Virus record (IMG/VR): IMGVR_UViG_3300047281_000029
Location: 1,013 to 65,012 of that record
Length of the DNA stretch: 64,000 nt
Origin: a virus
Taxonomy: Duplodnaviria; Caudoviricetes
Direction: 5' to 3' (one strand)
The notes below the pieces were generated by a model. That model was not told where the DNA came from, did not search any database, and saw only the letters and a list, made by a program, of their open reading frames with translations. The translations under genes and the position numbers were made by a program. Of the stretch, positions 1 to 6,001 are shown in pieces. How positions within the stretch are numbered: position 1 is the first letter of the stretch; each line of letters starts with the position of its first letter.

Positions 1-336
1 ATAATATTTTATGAATTTGATTACTGCGTTGTATGTTGCTTCTATTTTTGTTCTCTCGAATGTTTCTACAATTGGTAGTGGATATCGGTTGTCTACAATA
101 TTAACGGATGTCATTAGAATTTCAAAAACATATTGAGAAAGTCCTTCTTCATCCTCTATCTCTTCTATCTTATCCACTGCCTTTATTAACCAGTTCCAGT
201 CATAATTAAATGATAGTATGGTTAATGGTGACTCGTCTTTTTTATACCAATAGGTAGAGTTTGGATAGTCGGGATGAGGTTGTACATAACCTAAAAATTC
301 TGCTATCAGTTTGTTGTTATCTGCTATTGTGCACAT
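1..336 (-). CDS. Hypothetical Bacteroidota-phage protein, runs off the window edge (not in ORF track)
   Basis: Manual translation MCTIADNNKLIAEFLG...YDWNWLIKAVDKIEE...ATYNAVIKFIKYY; open to position 1. Confidence 0.7.
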   Translation of the reverse strand, partial: MCTIADNNKLIAEFLGYVQPHPDYPNSTYWYKKDESPLTILSFNYDWNWLIKAVDKIEEIEDEEGLSQYVFEILMTSVNIVDNRYPLPIVETFERTKIEATYNAVIKFIKYY

Positions 337-596
337 AGTTCCCAAGTGTTAAGTTGTTTTACGTTTTGTTTTGTTAGTCCTAGTTCCTTTACAATAAACT
401 TGGCTAGCTTCTTGTTGCCTATTGTACCTTCGTCTATCACGTTTGTTCCAATGTAACTTGCCACGTATGATGGCGGTGTGTTTAGTACTCTATTGCAAAA
501 CTTTACGTCTTGACCTAGGAAGAATTGTTTTCTGTTGTACTCTAGTGTCCAGTTACGACCGAACCCGTACTCTCCTTGTGTGATAATTACTCTCAT
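324..596 (-). CDS. Hypothetical early protein (likely start 596, MRVIITQ)
   Basis: AT-rich TTAATTAATAAC leader before ATG at 596; the longer start at 710 lies inside a tRNA-like element. Confidence 0.7.
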   Translation of the reverse strand: MRVIITQGEYGFGRNWTLEYNRKQFFLGQDVKFCNRVLNTPPSYVASYIGTNVIDEGTIGNKKLAKFIVKELGLTKQNVKQLNTWELCAQ

Positions 597-619
597 GTTA
601 TTAATTAATTTAAAGTTAG

Positions 620-760
620 TGAAGAGGGCAGGACTCGAACCTGCACTATGATTTTTATCGAATCTTAAAAACATATTTACAATGACTGGATTTTTTATAC
701 TTAACTCCATAAGTTAAATCATATTAAGTATTTAGCGTCTTCCTTTTCCGCCACCTCTTC
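620..760 (-). ncRNA. tRNA-like element (Leu-type D arm) with a ~90-nt insert in place of the anticodon/variable arms
   Basis: GAAGAGG/CCTCTTC 7-bp acceptor stem plus discriminator A; TG GCG GAAAAGGAAGA CGC D arm; GCAGG TTCGAGT CCTGC T arm. Confidence 0.75.
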
Positions 761-772
761 GTGTGCTAGCAG

Positions 773-991
773 TTACTCTGCTAGTCTTTGTATTGTTAGG
801 TTGGTGCTTGTTTTAATTCTCTCTAGCGTGTCCTCGTGCTTGTCCTCGAACCACTTCGGTACATCTACAACTACTAGGTAGTCGTTAACTATCGTGTGCT
901 CGAATGACTTCGGGATAAAGAACGGCTGACCACCATCGTCGATAGTCAGCGCGTTGTTAGATAGTTGTCTGCGGTATAGTTGTAGTGTCAT
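773..991 (-). CDS. Hypothetical early protein
   Basis: ORF; start MTLQ overlaps the upstream stop. Confidence 0.65.
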   Translation of the reverse strand: MTLQLYRRQLSNNALTIDDGGQPFFIPKSFEHTIVNDYLVVVDVPKWFEDKHEDTLERIKTSTNLTIQRLAE

Positions 992-1236
992 TTTATTTCC
1001 TCCCATTTTATAATTTTATTTGAGTCTGCTGGTATGTGGTCTCCTCCAAATCCGTGAGGCATTAACCTCCCGTTAAAACTTTGATATTCAGGTGGTATAG
1101 CAAAATTATTAAACAACTTATTATAAAAACCTCTCTTAGTTACTATCTCTTCTCGACTTTTACTTTGGTAATCTCCAAATCGTATTGTCTTTTTATACGT
1201 TATCATAACGTCTTCGTATGGATTAGGTAGTGTCAT
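988..1236 (-). CDS. Hypothetical early protein
   Basis: ORF translationally coupled to both neighbours. Confidence 0.65.
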   Translation of the reverse strand: MTLPNPYEDVMITYKKTIRFGDYQSKSREEIVTKRGFYNKLFNNFAIPPEYQSFNGRLMPHGFGGDHIPADSNKIIKWEEIK

Positions 1237-1559
1237 TATCTTATAAAGTATTGGTTATCAAACTTGTATCGTTGTCCGTTGAAGTTCTGTGCGTACACTA
1301 GCAGGTCGAACTGGTCTGTGCTTACCGCGATGCAGTTCTGTGTTAGTATCGTTGCCAGCTCTTCAATCTTCTTGATGAAGTGACTTGTCCTTGCGTATGG
1401 ACTTTCTAACTCGACAATCAGAGTCGGTTCGTGCTCGTCCTCGTATCGTCCGATGCCGAACTTATACGTGTCGATGGTGTAGTCCTCTCTTAACTTGTTG
1501 ATGATTGCCTCTTGGCTCAATGGGTTGTTGTTTAGTCCGATGTTTAAAATTGCTTTCAT
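1236..1559 (-). CDS. Hypothetical early protein
   Basis: ORF with TTAATTAATTATC leader. Confidence 0.7.
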   Translation of the reverse strand: MKAILNIGLNNNPLSQEAIINKLREDYTIDTYKFGIGRYEDEHEPTLIVELESPYARTSHFIKKIEELATILTQNCIAVSTDQFDLLVYAQNFNGQRYKFDNQYFIR

Positions 1560-1564
1560 GATAA

Positions 1565-1876
1565 TTAATTAAAGTGTTTATAGGTTACGTTTTTGTTGTC
1601 TCCGAATAGGAACTTGTTTATCTTGTTGTAGATTTTTGAGATGATTTTCGCCATAATGATTTGCCTTTTCTTAATATGTAATTTGATTGGTGCTTGTTTA
1701 GTCCGTGATGGCTTGCCCAGTTCGTTGCGCTTAGCCAGTTGTTTACGTAGTCTAGGTATAGACGTTCTATTTCGTTGTTGCTATGATACTGCATATGCTA
1801 GTAGATTAAAGATTACTATTACTAATACAATTGTTACCTGTAGGTATAGTCTACCTTGTTTTTGTGATTTTGTCAT
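1565..1876 (-). CDS. Three overlapping small ORFs: 1781-1876 (31 aa, hydrophobic), 1618-1794 (58 aa), 1565-1654 (29 aa)
   Basis: Manual translation: MTKSQKQGRLYLQVTIVLVIVIFNLLAYAVS; MQYHSNNEIERLYLDYVNNW...; MAKIISKIYNKINKFLFG...; the first has the conserved early leader. Confidence 0.55.
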
Positions 1877-1894
1877 GATGTTATTAATTAAATT

Positions 1895-1944
1895 GGTTAA
1901 GACGCCTCTCGGCGTTTCGATCATTTAGATCTCATCAGTTAACC
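1895..1944 (-). ncRNA. Hammerhead ribozyme, type I (HHR1)
   Basis: GGTTAA-CTGATGA-GATC TAAAT GATC-GAA-ACGCC GAGA GGCGT-C^TTAACC; complete core, GUC cleavage triplet. Confidence 0.93.
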
Positions 1945-2292
1945 TTAGTAATAGAAGATCTGAGGCAGGTTCTTCGTTTGCTCTCTTAGTATCTGTCTGT
2001 TTGAGTTGTTGTTTGCTATAGTTCCAGCGTCAACAAAGAATATTGCGTTATCATTAAAGCATCCTGTACTTAGTCCGCCGTTAGATAAACAACTAGAGTA
2101 GCTTAGCTTCTGACAGAATCTTATTCCGTCTGCTATATATATTGCGTACACATCTTCCGTGTCATCAAAGAACGTGCACTCATCTTTAGAGTATAACTCT
2201 ATTGTGCGTTTCCATGCGCTTGGATTGTAGTCGTTACGCTTGTGGTTGATTGCTTCTTCCTTTGTGATTTGTTTTGCTTGAATTGTTCTCAT
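1945..2292 (-). CDS. Hypothetical early protein flanked by HHR2 and HHR1
   Basis: 115-aa ORF with conserved AT-rich leader. Confidence 0.75.
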   Translation of the reverse strand: MRTIQAKQITKEEAINHKRNDYNPSAWKRTIELYSKDECTFFDDTEDVYAIYIADGIRFCQKLSYSSCLSNGGLSTGCFNDNAIFFVDAGTIANNNSNRQILREQTKNLPQIFYY

Positions 2293-2310
2293 GATAATAA
2301 GTAATTAAAT

Positions 2311-2365
2311 GTTATAGACACACCCGATGGATGTGTTTCGACTATTGAAGTCTCGTCAGTATAAC
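2311..2365 (-). ncRNA. Hammerhead ribozyme, type I (HHR2)
   Basis: GTTATA-CTGACGA-GACT TCAAT AGTC-GAA-ACACATCC ATC GGGTGTGT-C^TATAAC. Confidence 0.93.
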
Positions 2366-2592
2366 TATTTTAGTTTTGTTTTGATGAACCAGTAGGCTCC
2401 CTGTATTCCTTCATCGTCAAGTTTAAATGATGCTGACTCAGAGACGCTATCTTCTGCCCATCCTGTGAAGTAGTATTTTATATCTATCTTGTTTACGTGT
2501 CCATGATAGTCTACAAACCATGTTTTGAATGTTGCTTGGTTTTGTTCTACTGCTACTGCTACTAATTCGAATAAATCTTTTAATGTTTTCAT
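2365..2592 (-). CDS. Hypothetical early protein flanked by HHR3 and HHR2
   Basis: 75-aa ORF with conserved AT-rich leader. Confidence 0.75.
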   Translation of the reverse strand: MKTLKDLFELVAVAVEQNQATFKTWFVDYHGHVNKIDIKYYFTGWAEDSVSESASFKLDDEGIQGAYWFIKTKLK

Positions 2593-2605
2593 GATAATAA
2601 TTAAT

Positions 2606-2660
2606 TAACGTTTCGTCGTTCTGCGACTCATCAGCATGGATAACACATCCATGTACGTTA
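2606..2660 (-). ncRNA. Hammerhead ribozyme, type III (HHR3)
   Basis: TAACGT-A^CATGGAT GTGTT ATCCATG-CTGATGA-GTCG CAGAA CGAC-GAA-ACGTTA; GUA triplet. Confidence 0.93.
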
Positions 2661-2989
2661 CACGTCTATCCCTATTTAGGTAGCTCGTGGTCCTCGGTTT
2701 CTACGCCAGAGTGGACTTACCCTATTTTATCCTGTTTTATCAGTCCGCCACTTTTTACATCTGTGGTCTCGATGGTTTGTTCGTTAGTGCAGGTGATTGA
2801 TAGTTGATGTCTTTAGGATTGTAAAGCCTGTCTCGTCTCTTCCCTTTACTTTCACTGCCTCTCATTGGGTCAGGTAGGGATGAAGTTTCTAGTTTGCTAT
2901 CCTGCTGATTATCAAGCAGTTAGAAGCTAACTTGCTGGAAATCAATCACTTACAATAAAATTAAGAACGTGTCGCTCATTTGAACACTG

Positions 2990-3021
2990 CAATAGTACGG
3001 CGGGTATTTCAATCCTGCAAA
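2990..3021 (-). promoter_or_regulatory. Bacteroidota sigma-A-type promoter for the early transcript
   Basis: TTTG-N20-TACTATTG, one mismatch to the TTTG-N19-21-TAnnTTTG consensus. Confidence 0.6.
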
Positions 3022-3401
3022 TAAAAATTAAAAAAAAATCACTTTTGTATGCATTTTTATGACATTCTCAGTGAATTGATTATTTTGATGAGAATAATGC
3101 AACAGATTTGTGTTGATATTGAGGATTATGCAAGGAAATTGAACGAAGTTTGATTAACGTGTTGATTATCAGTGTTTTACGGATTGTATTTGCTTACTAT
3201 TGGATTTGATAGTGGTGGGATGGGGCTGGGGTTATTTCAAGTCTCTATATATCTGAGCACATATTTTTACGAATCGATGCATAAATAATCCGATAAACCC
3301 AATAACAACAAGGTCTGACAAGGTATTTTCGTTCATTTTAATTCACTCTAGGATTGATTACGATAATCTCATGACGCGGGAAGTCCCGTCATTGCTGGGT
3401 T

Positions 3402-3666
3402 TATGTCGAGTTTTAGAAATTTATGTCGATTTTATGTCGAGTTTTTTGAGTTAACTAACTGATAATCAATAATCTATGTCGATATGTCGATTTTTACTAT
3501 CCTAAATAGATTTAAAAAAAAATAATATATATATAAAAACGTATAGAGCCTATATAGGGATAACATTGACATTTCGACATAAATCAAGACAAAGTCTTTA
3601 TTGGTGTGGCCTAGCGCCATGACGCAACGAAAAAATCTTGTCATTTGTCGACATAAAACGACATAG
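3402..3666. repeat. Iteron-like TATGTCGA repeats around an AT-rich core (candidate ori or packaging signal)
   Basis: TATGTCGA at 3402, 3422, 3433, 3475, 3483; inverted copies at 3574, 3648 and partial 3659. Confidence 0.65.
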
Positions 3667-3739
3667 AACGTCATGGATTAGGCGCTTAAATAGATTAAGT
3701 TGTCATTTCGTATCTTTGCATAAACTAAAAATGTATATT

Positions 3740-3937
3740 ATGAAAGTATGTAGCAAGTGTAAAATTGAATTGGATTATGATTGTTTTAATGTAGACAAGA
3801 CTAAACTGGATGGACTACGTCCAGATTGTAACAAATGTAGAAAGCAAGTGACACAGAAGTATATTAGTACAGATGAATTCAAGGAAAGGAAAAAGGAATT
3901 GAATAGACTATATAGACTCGCTCATTCTGTCAAGTAA
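3740..3937 (+). CDS. Small zinc-ribbon protein resembling the N-terminus of phage HNH/EndoVII nucleases, possibly truncated
   Basis: MKVCSKCK...F.VDKTKLDGLRPDCNKC; promoter TATCTTTG at 3711. Confidence 0.55.
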   Translation: MKVCSKCKIELDYDCFNVDKTKLDGLRPDCNKCRKQVTQKYISTDEFKERKKELNRLYRLAHSVK

Positions 3938-4235
3938 AAAAAGGGAACTATAGGTACGTATACGTGCGCGTATAGTAGTACGTGTATGCGTGTGATATAG
4001 TAGACACCTGCGTGTATGGGTAGGGCAGTCCAGAAAAAGCCAAAAATTCTCGGCAAGTCCAGTGAAATCGGTACCCCACCCTTGATTTTTAAGTCGTTTT
4101 CGTTTTGGCATCCCATCCGCAATATCTATATATAACCCACACACCACACATATCTAACATGTTCAATAAAAACCGGCGTTCATTGTCAATGAACACACGA
4201 CACCTATATCTGACATTTTTTATTATATTTGCAGC

Positions 4236-4439
4236 ATGAGCAGATCAACAAAAAAACCAATAATGAAGCACAGCCCAAAAGGACGCAGGGCCCTTTACTG
4301 GAGAACAACCCGTCGTATAATCAACGAATCCATACGCCAACAAAAGGAGACGCTTCCGCTTGAGAAGGAGATCGTAAACGACTACGACTACAGCGACTAC
4401 AGATTTTTTTCTGATAGGCCTTGCGACACTAGAAAATAA
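4236..4439 (+). CDS. Hypothetical basic protein
   Basis: ORF directly after a TATATTTG promoter. Confidence 0.7.
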   Translation: MSRSTKKPIMKHSPKGRRALYWRTTRRIINESIRQQKETLPLEKEIVNDYDYSDYRFFSDRPCDTRK

Positions 4440-4455
4440 TTTATATATTTGCCCT

Positions 4456-4677
4456 ATGAAAGACGAGTACATTAAACTACGAACCCAAGCCGACATGTCG
4501 ATCAGTTGGTTCCATAAGTACTTTATGGACAAGACTGGAAAGAGCATCCACTTCAATCACTTCCACATGATATTCATGAACGGGGACATTCACGAGGTGA
4601 TGAATTACCTTGACAAGCAGTTCGACCTGACCTTAGTCATCGGTAAGAACGGTAACGTAATTAAAGTAGTAGAGTAG
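4456..4677 (+). CDS. Hypothetical protein
   Basis: ORF directly after a TATATTTG promoter. Confidence 0.7.
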   Translation: MKDEYIKLRTQADMSISWFHKYFMDKTGKSIHFNHFHMIFMNGDIHEVMNYLDKQFDLTLVIGKNGNVIKVVE

Positions 4678-4681
4678 AGGT

Positions 4682-4876
4682 ATGAGTTTATTTAAAATTA
4701 AAGGTTTAAGATATATTAAGGGATTTAAAAATAAGATACTTTATATTTTAAAGATACAGCCATTCTGTACAAAAGGAATAGAGAATTATAATTATAAGTG
4801 CATTAGATTTGAATTAAAAAACGGGTCTTGTATTTACTGCGGCGCTACTAAAGATAAATATAGCTGGCATAAATAA
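4682..4876 (+). CDS. Hypothetical protein (CxxC)
   Basis: ORF following the upstream gene by 4 nt. Confidence 0.5.
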   Translation: MSLFKIKGLRYIKGFKNKILYILKIQPFCTKGIENYNYKCIRFELKNGSCIYCGATKDKYSWHK

Positions 4877-4942
4877 CGTAGTTGTCCGACGGTTATGAGA
4901 CCTGCCTAGCGGTGCAGGTATAAAGAGGCAACGAACCGCAAC

Positions 4943-5022
4943 AGTCAGGTGGGCGTAATGAGGGATGGTCCCGAATCCATGAGATACTGGTTGCTTATCC
5001 GGTTCGAGTCCGGCCCTGACAC
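4943..5022 (+). ncRNA. Degenerate tRNA-like element
   Basis: GTCAGG/CCTGAC acceptor-like stem and CCGG TTCGAGT CCGG T arm; no canonical D or anticodon arm. Confidence 0.55.
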
Positions 5023-5175
5023 GATAAGCGTTTCGCGGTTAAACGGAAAAACACGCCGTGCGGAGTGACCTTCAGAGGTGGTCGATAAAGAACTCGAAAC
5101 GTGATAGTACATGAAGCTCATGTTATAAGTAACTATCGAAGTGCGACTTAGGACGACGCTGTCTAAGTGGAATAA

Positions 5176-5244
5176 TACCGGTTGGTGTAATTGGTAACAC
5201 GATGGTTGATCCATCAGATAAGGGTTCGAATCCCTTACCGGTAT
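5176..5244 (+). tRNA. tRNA-like gene (Gln-type body) with an aberrant 5-nt anticodon loop
   Basis: TACCGGT/ACCGGTA; GTGT AATTGGTA ACAC; GATGG TTGAT CCATC; AAGGG TTCGAAT CCCTT. Confidence 0.7.
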
Positions 5245-5369
5245 CAACAGCCCTGCTCGCGAGGGGATCGTAAAACACAACACACTTCTCGTAAGATCAG
5301 TGCGCTCATGTTGTTCTCATCGTATAGGAGATAGAGTTAGATTTCTCGACGTCGTTCAAAAAATCAACC

Positions 5370-5443
5370 GGTCCCGTAGCTCAGTTGGTTAGAGCGTCTG
5401 ACTCATAATCAGGATGTCCATGGTTCGAGCCCATGTGGGACCA
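5370..5443 (+). tRNA. tRNA with CAT anticodon, probably Ile2 (lysidine) rather than Met
   Basis: Full cloverleaf GGTCCCG...CT CAT AA...TGGGACC A; C4-G69 and C5-G68 are TilS determinants; no encoded CCA. Confidence 0.9.
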
Positions 5444-5502
5444 CAAACAGTACCTTCGACGCTACCCGTAGAACAGCGTCCCAGCGAAGGTCGTTTACTT
5501 AA

Positions 5503-5548
5503 GGCATCGGTTTAGGCTCGGGATGTCCCGGGCGCCGATGTTTTTTTT
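5503..5548 (+). terminator. Probable intrinsic terminator ending the ncRNA island
   Basis: GCATCGG...CCGATGT stem followed by a T8 tract. Confidence 0.55.
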
Positions 5549-5681
5549 GTCACATATAAAGTTGGCAAATACCGGCGATAATTGCCGTTATTATATAGGT
5601 GGGTAGAACAGGTGGGTAGATATGTTCATTTAAAATCAGCGTTCATTGTCAATGAACAGTAACAAAAAATAAAATTATATT

Positions 5682-5927
5682 ATGAAAAACGAGTTTATAC
5701 AAGTAGAGATAGAAGTTTACAATAGAGAACTTGCTGATCTTGGAGTTGAATCAAAGGAATCAATATGGGCTGATGCAGTCATAAACGAATCAGAAGTAGC
5801 TGCCATAAGAGCTTCACTAGATAATAATGATCGTTGTGTTATATACTTGAAAAATGGAGATAACTTTATAATTAGAATGCATCTTTATGAGGCGGTATGG
5901 CTATTTACTGGAAAAAAATTCGAATAG
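5682..5927 (+). CDS. Hypothetical protein
   Basis: 81-aa ORF, AT-rich leader. Confidence 0.65.
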   Translation: MKNEFIQVEIEVYNRELADLGVESKESIWADAVINESEVAAIRASLDNNDRCVIYLKNGDNFIIRMHLYEAVWLFTGKKFE

Positions 5928-6001
5928 AATGTTCGATATTCTAGACATTTCTAGATATTTTGTGTATAATAACAATCAAATAATTTTATTACCTTTGTAG
6001 C

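Follow-up and report, generated by a model that had tools for sequence, protein, structure and literature searches.

A tRNA-like element with a hypervariable core between two early genes of a phage, and its candidate role in transcript processing

Mitochondrial transcripts are divided by tRNA punctuation. In the MALAT1 mascRNA, the tRNA-miRNA units of murine gammaherpesvirus 68, the C4 RNA of phages P1 and P7, the species 1 RNA of phage T4, and the engineered 'tRNA scaffold', a tRNA-shaped part recruits RNase P and/or RNase Z. Such tRNA-like modules can tolerate foreign RNA in the place of the anticodon arm and retain their processing. To our knowledge, none of them has a hypervariable core and punctuates a phage mRNA, and most bacterial and phage hammerheads have no assigned role. 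A literature search, with supplementary files outside its scope, found no paper on such elements in phages. The t-elements of plant mitochondria are reported to be non-canonical cloverleaves that carry the motif GGTTCRANYCC and lie at mRNA ends, which RNase P and RNase Z form there; in the same account, an excised t-element can be stable and gain non-encoded C residues (PMC1920247). Tandem hammerheads are reported to cut phage-like polycistronic RNAs, for a purpose left open in that account (PMC3088659). YrlA is described as a tRNA-like partner of the TROVE protein that occurs in some phages (PMC7824862), and theta (HDV-like) ribozymes are described beside tRNAs in phages of Bacteroidota (PMC10879173).

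The window analyzed here, a stretch of 64,000 nt to which all coordinates refer, comprises nearly all of a 65,012-nt IMG/VR record that is rated complete. The genome encodes GroEL, GroES, a large terminase, a portal, two virion proteins of ~2,500 aa, and a replication module. The terminase shares 73.5% identity with the uncultured podovirus record MW202828.1, the nearest record to the phage clade, and ~46% identity with those of Flavobacterium and Cellulophaga podophages (87 records matched). The phage is a podophage of Flavobacteriia type. Its best DNA holders were freshwater metagenomes; beyond 'freshwater' for these holders, the habitat labels of low-share runs were set aside. The small early genes of the minus strand (2600 down to 1) each stand behind an AU-rich leader of the TTAATTAAT type, and no Shine-Dalgarno sequence was found in these leaders. 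Bacteroidia ribosomes are reported to ignore Shine-Dalgarno sequences (PMC9976891), and a Bacteroidia host therefore fits the early leaders.

Proteins of the phage were scanned in three sets: 15 large proteins against PHROGs, eight small early proteins against Pfam and PHROGs, and 59 others against Pfam. Nothing informative was returned for the eight small early proteins. Because no tRNA-related domain (TROVE, RtcB, CCA-adding, synthetase) was found among the scanned proteins, host enzymes are the likely actors at the element described below. A megablast search of window positions 1-6000 against cultured phages gave no match. A blastn search against cultured phages with the element and leader of one relative (L047) returned 686 records, with short pieces only. 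The records inspected were ordinary phage tRNAs or unrelated sequences, among which the Kremar tRNA-Gln has an identical D arm, and no family member from a cultured phage was found in them.

The element, as read from the sequence, occupies positions 760..620 of the minus strand (141 nt) between two early genes, with element position p equal to window position 761-p (Table 1). The first-pass annotation had described a perfect 7-bp acceptor stem, a perfect T arm, a Leu-like D arm, and about 90 nt in place of the anticodon and variable arms, all of which are present in the sequence. The D stem consists of 3 bp, GCG (751-749) with CGC (737-735), and encloses an 11-nt D loop, GAAAAGGAAGA, that contains GG, an arrangement as in bacterial tRNA-Leu. 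The tRNA-Met of the phage likewise lacks an encoded CCA. Upstream, a 77-aa ORF ends with its stop codon at 775-773, 12 nt before the element. Downstream, the ATG of a 90-aa ORF (596-594) follows the discriminator after exactly 23 nt (619-597). These coordinates agree with the intergenic site and the 23-nt distance to the ATG at 596 given earlier, as does the 24-nt spacing of the neighboring hammerheads. The hairpin over the upstream stop codon may form the 3' end of the upstream mRNA following an RNase P cut. Relatives with an extra upstream block carry TGCTAG-GAAAGA-CTAGCA in its place, and the hairpin is missing in L007, L009, and L047.

The insert contains the TTAACTT-ATG-GAGTTAA hairpin of the earlier annotation at 717-701, with the ATG at 710-708, and the pairing of insert segments proposed there was located at 723-716/654-647. 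Because this TATGATTT/AAATCATA helix competes with the MFE pairing, it is treated as a tentative structure. Together with ATACTTAA/TTAAGTAT, it may form an H-type pseudoknot, in which the variable patch would be the long loop.

Table 1. Features of the tRNA-like element and its surroundings (window coordinates).
Feature	Position	Strand	Basis or remark
Acceptor stem, 5' strand GAAGAGG	760-754	-	Sequence; invariant in 12/12 locus-A sequences
U8, G9, and D arm	753..735	-	tRNA-Leu type
AT-rich insert, 90 nt, replacing the anticodon and variable arms	734-645	-	Sequence, fold
ATACTTAA, pairing with TTAAGTAT (704-697)	731-724	-	Helix S1 of a possible H-type pseudoknot; in the MFE fold
TATGATTT, pairing with AAATCATA (654-647)	723-716	-	Sequence; tentative helix where an anticodon stem would stand, separated from the T stem by 2 nt
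Sole variable patch of the window-type insert	686..660	-	11/13 variable columns, at element positions 75-101
T arm GCAGG-TTCGAGT-CCTGC	644-628	-	Sequence, MFE fold
Acceptor stem, 3' strand CCTCTTC	627-621	-	Perfect 7-bp pairing with GAAGAGG
Discriminator A620	620	-	No CCA encoded after the element
23-nt leader CTAACTTTAAATTAATTAATAAC and ATG of the 90-aa gene	619..594	-	Sequence; CTAAC trailer in all listed locus-A members
Hairpin CTAGCAG-AGTAA-CTGCTAG, 7 bp	784..766	-	Spans the stop of the upstream gene, ends 5 nt before the element

ARAGORN made no tRNA or tmRNA call at the element, contrary to the earlier expectation of a pseudogene or intron call, and the Rfam tRNA model (RF00005) gave no match at its gathering score, nor at E<=10 on window positions 1-6000. 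In its 7-bp acceptor, its D arm, and its T arm (TTCRANY loop), the element matches a canonical tRNA; it lacks the anticodon stem of 5 bp with its 7-nt loop and exceeds the usual total of ~72-95 nt. The element cannot decode. All three arms are retained in its MFE fold (-32.9 kcal/mol, z -2.76), with one of 200 shuffles as good. A strict scan for U8 and the T-loop motif, together with a T stem of 5 bp and an acceptor of 7 bp closing within 62-299 nt, found three sites in the window: the element, the tRNA-Met, and an odd tRNA-like sequence at 5176-5244. Simulated 64-kb sequences gave 0.135 sites each, and since 26 of the 200 simulations had at least one site, the arms alone are only moderately unlikely by chance. 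The feature is nevertheless certain because of its D arm and its conservation in relatives. It is an RNA structure under selection that goes back to a tRNA whose D arm was of Leu type.

Relatives of the 90-aa protein were found at 16 viral-contig loci. The element was present in the equivalent place at the eight closest of these (71-98% identical) and missing at the eight distant ones (48-55% identical). An exact 25-mer located the element in four viral contigs and a degenerate pattern in nine viral stretches. A pattern scan of metagenomes found members at nine of 76 loci, the other 67 being ordinary tRNAs (many Tyr/Leu, with a similar acceptor) or unrelated sequences. The 12 distinct sequences of this site (locus A) agree in their first 12 nt and in the D-loop GG, and almost every position of the T arm and the 3' acceptor strand is invariant in them. 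The core occurred in at least seven versions that cannot be aligned, six besides that of the window, with lengths of about 20 to 170 nt. Both the conserved arms and the variable insert that had been anticipated for a homolog alignment were seen in these 12 sequences.

The window type, with elements of 140-142 nt, was found in the window, L006, L011, L013, L053, and others. The other types comprised elements of 72 nt (L010), 92 nt (L007 and L009), 92 nt (L012), 107 nt (L047), 171-172 nt (L008 and L090), and 220 nt (L037). The short versions fold as cloverleaves with a simple helix as the 'anticodon' arm, closed by a loop that does not have the right size. ARAGORN labels four relatives tRNA-??? 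with 2- or 4-base 'anticodons', and L009 (39.8 bits) and L047 (38.6 bits) exceed the threshold of the Rfam tRNA model only because the model skips this arm. No short version of the family can decode. At relaxed thresholds, neither the inserts nor the 170-nt upstream block of the relatives matched a known Rfam family.

The strand of the element and its position relative to the next gene were also retained in all relatives. In every locus-A member, 22-23 nt separate the end of the element from an ATG, and CTAAC...TTAATTAAT follows the element; in the RNA, the leader reads CUAAC...UUAAUUAAU and also CUAAC-UUUAAAUUAAUUAAU. Three different genes stand behind the element: the MRVIITQ gene, an additional gene of 105 aa in L047, and, in L037, a lipoprotein-like ORF. 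In L007, L009, and L047, it begins 6 nt past the upstream stop codon.

The arms covary; the absence of covariation in homologs, a stated ground for giving up the earlier proposal, was thus not observed. In an alignment of 14 family members, 97.6% of cells pair. Changes on both sides were observed at six of the seven acceptor pairs, where covariation partly rests on L022B, L024B, and MW202828.1, picked by a scanner that required acceptor pairing, and at two of the five T-stem pairs, whose variants came from a pattern constraining the 3' strand only. None of 500 shuffles reached the observed values, and slid controls paired in 42-49% of cells. Specifically, L007 and L009 have the T stem ACGGG/CCCGT instead of GCAGG/CCTGC, which amounts to two compensated pairs, and L047 has a G-U pair in the T stem. 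The compensated acceptor GACCGAG was found in elements beside the tRNA-Met of L022 and L024, and the compensated acceptor AGTGCAG in an element of MW202828.1 that carries no annotation (523-630); the D and T arms are unchanged in both cases. The element L022B was independently detected by Rfam (41.3 bits). The D stem is paired in 88% of cells, and the unpaired cells are alignment slips in L007 and L010.

The early operon also carries hammerheads, for which Rfam gave sub-threshold matches at 1955-1878, 2411-2312, and 2643-2605. The first two are of type I and would be cut after C1901 and after C2317, in both cases 24 nt upstream of an ATG; the third is of type III and remains on its own mRNA. 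A hammerhead scan of the window and 15 related loci gave 22 candidates, of which 21 were kept as distinct type I hammerheads and one (window 42632+) was dropped, as it lies inside a virion gene on the other strand. Predicted cut-to-ATG distances among the 21 were 22 nt in four, 23 in two, 24 in eight, 25 in five, and 26 in two. The 5' ends of the predicted hammerhead products read UUAACC, UAUAAC, or UUUAAC, followed by AAUUUAAUUAAU, and the tRNA-like element would leave CUAAC. A cut after the discriminator would consequently give an mRNA 5' end that matches the ribozyme products in length and nearly in sequence. By this analogy, the shared leader length and the nearly shared sequence form the strongest argument for a processing role. 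No exchange of a hammerhead for a tRNA-like element, or the reverse, was found at any one gene junction.

With slightly better than even confidence, and by analogy, the element is read as a t-element-like signal that would be cut by host RNase Z and RNase P. As for t-elements, a non-canonical cloverleaf that keeps the T-loop motif and the acceptor was found between cistrons within an mRNA. In the proposed mechanism, the acceptor, T, and D arms would fold as the 'top half and elbow' of a tRNA in the leftward early polycistronic transcript. Host RNase Z would cut 3' of A620, so that the downstream mRNA begins with CUAAC..., 23 nt before its ATG, and host RNase P would cut 5' of G760 and free the upstream mRNA behind its terminal hairpin. 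Host enzymes would in this manner do at the element what the neighboring hammerheads do through self-cleavage. Each cistron would gain a short, unstructured, AU-rich leader suited to ribosomes that work without Shine-Dalgarno pairing. The anticodon domain, dispensable for RNase P and RNase Z, would have ceded its place to a phage-specific insert. We infer the cleavages, the enzymes involved, and the benefit to translation. In addition, the excised RNA of ~141 nt may have a second role of its own. The earlier suggestion of a processing signal akin to the hammerheads is partly supported, by the covarying arms around a free core, the fixed spacing of 22-23 nt, and the similar leader. It did not anticipate that the insert is an exchangeable cassette conserved within each type, nor that a second and perhaps a third odd tRNA-like element adjoin the tRNA-Met.

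Sequencing data were examined from 22 runs as assembled contigs, which cannot show RNA ends. The only run recorded as RNA, X18, yielded a 459-nt contig of a close relative (483-941, 12 differences, depth 173) that reaches from the upstream gene across the complete element into the downstream gene, with no break at either predicted cut site. Because this contig bridges the element, an uncut transcript, or DNA in the library, exists. The bridging weakly argues against efficient cleavage and not against cleavage as such. Stretches of X18 that lack cover (e.g., 1920-2567) carry no information. The run X19, probably DNA, covers 610-769.

The inserts behave as exchangeable cassettes. For example, L010 and L011 share 98% identity in the 100 nt ahead of the element and 99.3% in the gene that follows, and their cores are unrelated (elements of 72 vs 140 nt). 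Similarly, L011 and L012 have flanks of 100% and 95.6% identity and unrelated cores. The insert type is uncoupled from the flanking genes. Within one type, in contrast, the insert is better conserved than the adjoining gene: the inserts of the window and L013 are 97.8% identical (adjacent gene, 74.8%), those of the window and L060 100% (88.9%), and those of L008 and L090 99.2% (90.0%), while L007 and L009 share the whole element at 100% (81.5%). Five distinct window-type sequences have 13 variable columns, and element positions 14-74 and 102-126 never vary. Both strands of helix S1 and the TATGATTT/AAATCATA segments are invariant in all five. A search of viral contigs placed all three matches to the window insert inside the element and none elsewhere. 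A pure processing signal leaves the conservation of the insert unexplained, as it does the presence of unrelated inserts between the 98-99% identical flanks of L010 and L011.

Additional hypervariable tRNA-like elements adjoin the tRNA-Met on the plus strand, in the window (5176-5244) and in L002, L003, L022, L024, and L090. The window copy is a cloverleaf with a 5-nt 'anticodon' loop, labeled tRNA-Ser by ARAGORN, and the versions of relatives measure 80-123 nt. The placement 23 nt before an ATG was not found for these elements. A candidate third tRNA-like sequence at 4944-5021 folds no better than shuffles (z -0.14) and is a positional lead only. In one genome, the inserts at locus A and at the tRNA-Met site (locus B) are similar to each other, with GUAAGG...CCUUACAU in L012 and GUAAAGG...CCUUUACAU in L022. 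The shell also occurs around a GC-rich core in L105, a contig binned as Pseudomonadota that carries phage replication genes; one of 26 bases differs from the element in the 5' part, and all 25 bases are identical in the 3' part. The covariance model R1 returned its training sequences, as expected by construction, and other long tRNA-like genes in unrelated contigs. Since the insert is an exchangeable, conserved cassette and further odd tRNA-like sequences lie near the tRNA-Met, punctuation is perhaps not the whole story, and the conserved, exchangeable inserts suggest that the released RNA also carries a cargo.

A tRNA-scaffolded small RNA is accordingly the main alternative, possible though rather unlikely in our estimate. 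The insert would be the functional part, with the type-specific cores as regulators, aptamers, or mimics; the shell would serve excision by RNase P and RNase Z as well as stability, and the placement ahead of an ATG would be secondary. This reading draws on the insert types, more conserved than the adjacent coding gene and uncoupled from their flanks in the manner of allelic cassettes, and on the window type, in which the insert is invariant outside one 27-nt patch. It is also consistent with the non-coding cluster of hypervariable elements around the tRNA-Met, with the similarity of the L012 and L022 inserts at loci A and B, and with the matching arms around a GC-rich core in the unrelated, phage-like contig L105. 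The cores would act in the manner of the RNase P-processed C4 antisense RNA, which reportedly sets immunity in phages P1 and P7; Rfam, which includes a C4 family, gave no C4 match for the element. However, no antisense target of the insert with complementarity of at least 12 nt was found in the window, where only eight scattered 11-mers occurred, and no motif is common to the 7-10 insert types compared. The smallest version (L010, 72 nt) contains just a 7-bp hairpin with a 6-nt loop. High insert identity could alternatively stem from recent recombination at the conserved arms, which, if frequent, could be the source of much of the exchange pattern; a similar shuffling affects the modules of stems II and III in the hammerheads. 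In its broadest form, which we regard as doubtful, the shell would be a natural 'display scaffold' and the cores functional small RNAs, such as anti-defence mimics or specificity determinants, which Flavobacteriia phages would exchange through recombination at the invariant arms, at two or more loci per genome, with punctuation as a by-product or second use. A scaffold and a punctuation mark can coexist in the same element.

An improbable alternative is a decoy or sponge for factors that bind the tRNA body or 3' end, such as defence toxins that cut or modify tRNAs, LeuRS, or the CCA-adding enzyme. The intact elbow, acceptor stem, and A73, the Leu-type D arm, and the location in an early operon are compatible with such a role, as is hypervariability, which is typical of arms-race loci; bacterial LeuRS is not known to read the anticodon. 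Nucleases of the anticodon loop, on the other hand, would need a mimic of that loop, and the cores have none in common. A search of 185,579 species genomes gave no occurrence of the 5' 26-mer, and the element is therefore not an exact copy of a cellular tRNA. A single copy inside an mRNA would be a weak sponge, and no link to a defence system was found.

Readings other than processing, cargo, and decoy are improbable even when taken together. A decaying or insertion-disrupted tRNA-Leu pseudogene that lacks function would account for the missing tRNA-finder call and for indels in an AT-rich core (lengths of 140, 141, and 142 nt), but we consider it very improbable, given arms that are invariant or compensated while the neighboring gene is at 75% identity, a fixed spacing to the ATG, and a shell that is kept in a GC-rich phage. 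Least credible of all are a working intron-bearing tRNA, a mini-tmRNA, or a coding N-terminal extension (ORF 710..324), which could be suspected from a CUUAAUA loop after the D arm that resembles the anticodon loop of tRNA-Leu(UAA) and from an ORF that runs from the ATG at 710 in frame into the next gene: no single excision gives a 5-bp anticodon stem beside the T arm; a group I intron, for which the element had already been called too short, finds no Rfam Intron_gpI match in an insert of just 90 nt; no Rfam or ARAGORN match indicates a tmRNA, and the third acceptor pair is A-U and not the G-U needed for alanine charging; and insert differences of +1/-1 nt in relatives break the ORF, while other types differ in length.

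The processing signal favored here resembles the plant mitochondrial t-elements in its acceptor stem, its T-loop motif, and a non-canonical cloverleaf located between or at mRNA ends. It differs from them in lying in a phage operon, in relying on presumed bacterial enzymes, in standing alongside hammerheads, and in having an exchangeable, conserved core, with its cleavage only predicted. YrlA shares with the element a module of acceptor, D, and T arms in which another helix replaces the anticodon arm. The ends of YrlA lie in the Ro-binding stem, and YrlA adjoins the rsr/TROVE gene. An identity with YrlA was rejected, as no TROVE protein is among the scanned window proteins and the element ends at its acceptor stem; in CcrColossus, a YrlA-like candidate precedes a gene annotated 'RNA-binding protein'. 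The theta ribozyme is described as maturing a working suppressor tRNA, whereas here a tRNA-like structure that does not decode would mature an mRNA.

The tandem hammerheads are like the element in their intercistronic place and in the presumed cutting of a long early RNA into units. They cleave themselves and leave a 5'-OH and a 2',3'-cyclic phosphate, whereas cleavage of the tRNA-like element would depend on host enzymes, and the resulting ends would be a 5'-phosphate and a 3'-OH. The occurrence of both in one operon set, with similar leaders, points to one purpose, in which early transcripts would be cut into units with short leaders. If the processing reading is true, tRNA punctuation and t-elements would be extended from organelles to phages. 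If the cores are cargo, the element would parallel in nature the engineered tRNA scaffold and represent a new class of phage small RNA.

On the plus strand beside tRNA-Met, a 69-nt cloverleaf was identified, in which the "anticodon" loop spans only 5 nt on a 5-bp stem. Its acceptor and T arm were kept in relatives with differing middles (85-87 nt), and the T stem changes in the counterpart from contig L003 were compensated. Further relatives carried elements of 80-123 nt with different acceptors at this locus. A third, degenerate tRNA-like element is possible in the window at 4944-5021, where a matching position is occupied by the GACCGAG elements of contigs L022 and L024; the fold of this candidate was no better than those of its shuffles (z -0.14).

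Coordinates of tRNA-like elements, insertion-bearing tRNA genes, and hammerhead ribozymes in the window and in the compared contigs
Feature	Location	Strand	Remarks
Cloverleaf, 69 nt	window 5176-5244	+	ARAGORN label tRNA-Ser(tga); Rfam 50.9 bits
Candidate third tRNA-like element, degenerate	window 4944-5021	+	TTCGAGT loop on a 4-bp T stem; acceptor pairing over 6 bp
Hammerhead ribozyme	window 1878-1955	-	27.1 bits, below Rfam gathering score
Hammerhead ribozyme	window 2312-2411	-	32.7 bits, below Rfam gathering score
Hammerhead ribozyme	window about 2605-2665	-	19.7 bits, below Rfam gathering score
Stretch with a 220-nt family member of the tRNA-like element	L037 2050-2345		
Version of the tRNA-like element's shell, 76 nt	L105 7729-7804	-	GC-rich middle; ARAGORN call tRNA-Ala(cgc)
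tRNA gene with long insertion, anticodon loop or nearby	L030 10324-10448		
tRNA gene with long insertion, anticodon loop or nearby	L096 9731-9873		
tRNA gene with long insertion, anticodon loop or nearby	L079 2893-3033		
tRNA gene with long insertion, anticodon loop or nearby	L026 134-222		
tRNA gene with long insertion, anticodon loop or nearby	L026 1849-1962		
Stretch with unannotated tRNA-like pieces	L106 (Caulobacter phage CcrColossus, NC_019406.1) 108128-108953		T arm, then Leu-type D arm half

Directly 5' of the tRNA-like element of the early operon, a conserved non-coding block of ~170 nt was observed in six relatives (L006, at 2660-2836, L008, and L010-L013), and it was missing in the window, L007, and L009. 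The last 100 nt of the block share 89-100% identity among relatives, and the block includes complementary segments at long range. It had no Rfam match at E<=1, and it was also present as a loose end of the contig from X18, a sequencing run on record as RNA.

The 220-nt family member in contig L037 is predicted to be at the extreme 5' end of a transcript, not in an intercistronic position, because it lies directly behind a sequence (TTTG ... TATGTTTG) resembling the Bacteroidetes promoter consensus and precedes a lipoprotein-like ORF.

The early operon of the window included three hammerhead ribozymes, two of type I and one of type III. Each type I ribozyme would cut 24 nt 5' of an ATG, while the single type III ribozyme is predicted to remain joined to its own mRNA. 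Stem I covaried among copies (GGUUAA/UUAACC, GUUAUA/UAUAAC, and GUUAAA/UUUAAC), and the relatives showed an exchange of stem II and III modules among copies. Separately, ATGTCGA-type words (TTTATGTCGA) recur in both orientations at about 3370-3680 of the window, a divergent intergenic stretch that separates the leftward from the rightward early operons. These words may be binding sites of a regulator or an origin protein.

The shell of the tRNA-like element also occurred in L105, a 53-kb contig binned to Pseudomonadota, with phage-type genes on both sides and a downstream module of an exonuclease, a Gp2.5-like SSB, a DNA polymerase, and a helicase. In addition, insertion-bearing tRNA genes of 89-143 nt were found in other metagenome and jumbo-phage contigs; that of L030 contains a hairpin of ~50 nt within an anticodon arm normal in other respects. 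Phage tRNA genes with inserts may be commoner than annotation suggests. In CcrColossus, the tRNA-like pieces are located just 5' of a gene annotated as 'RNA-binding protein', and this arrangement looks like a YrlA-type Y RNA adjoining a Ro-like gene.
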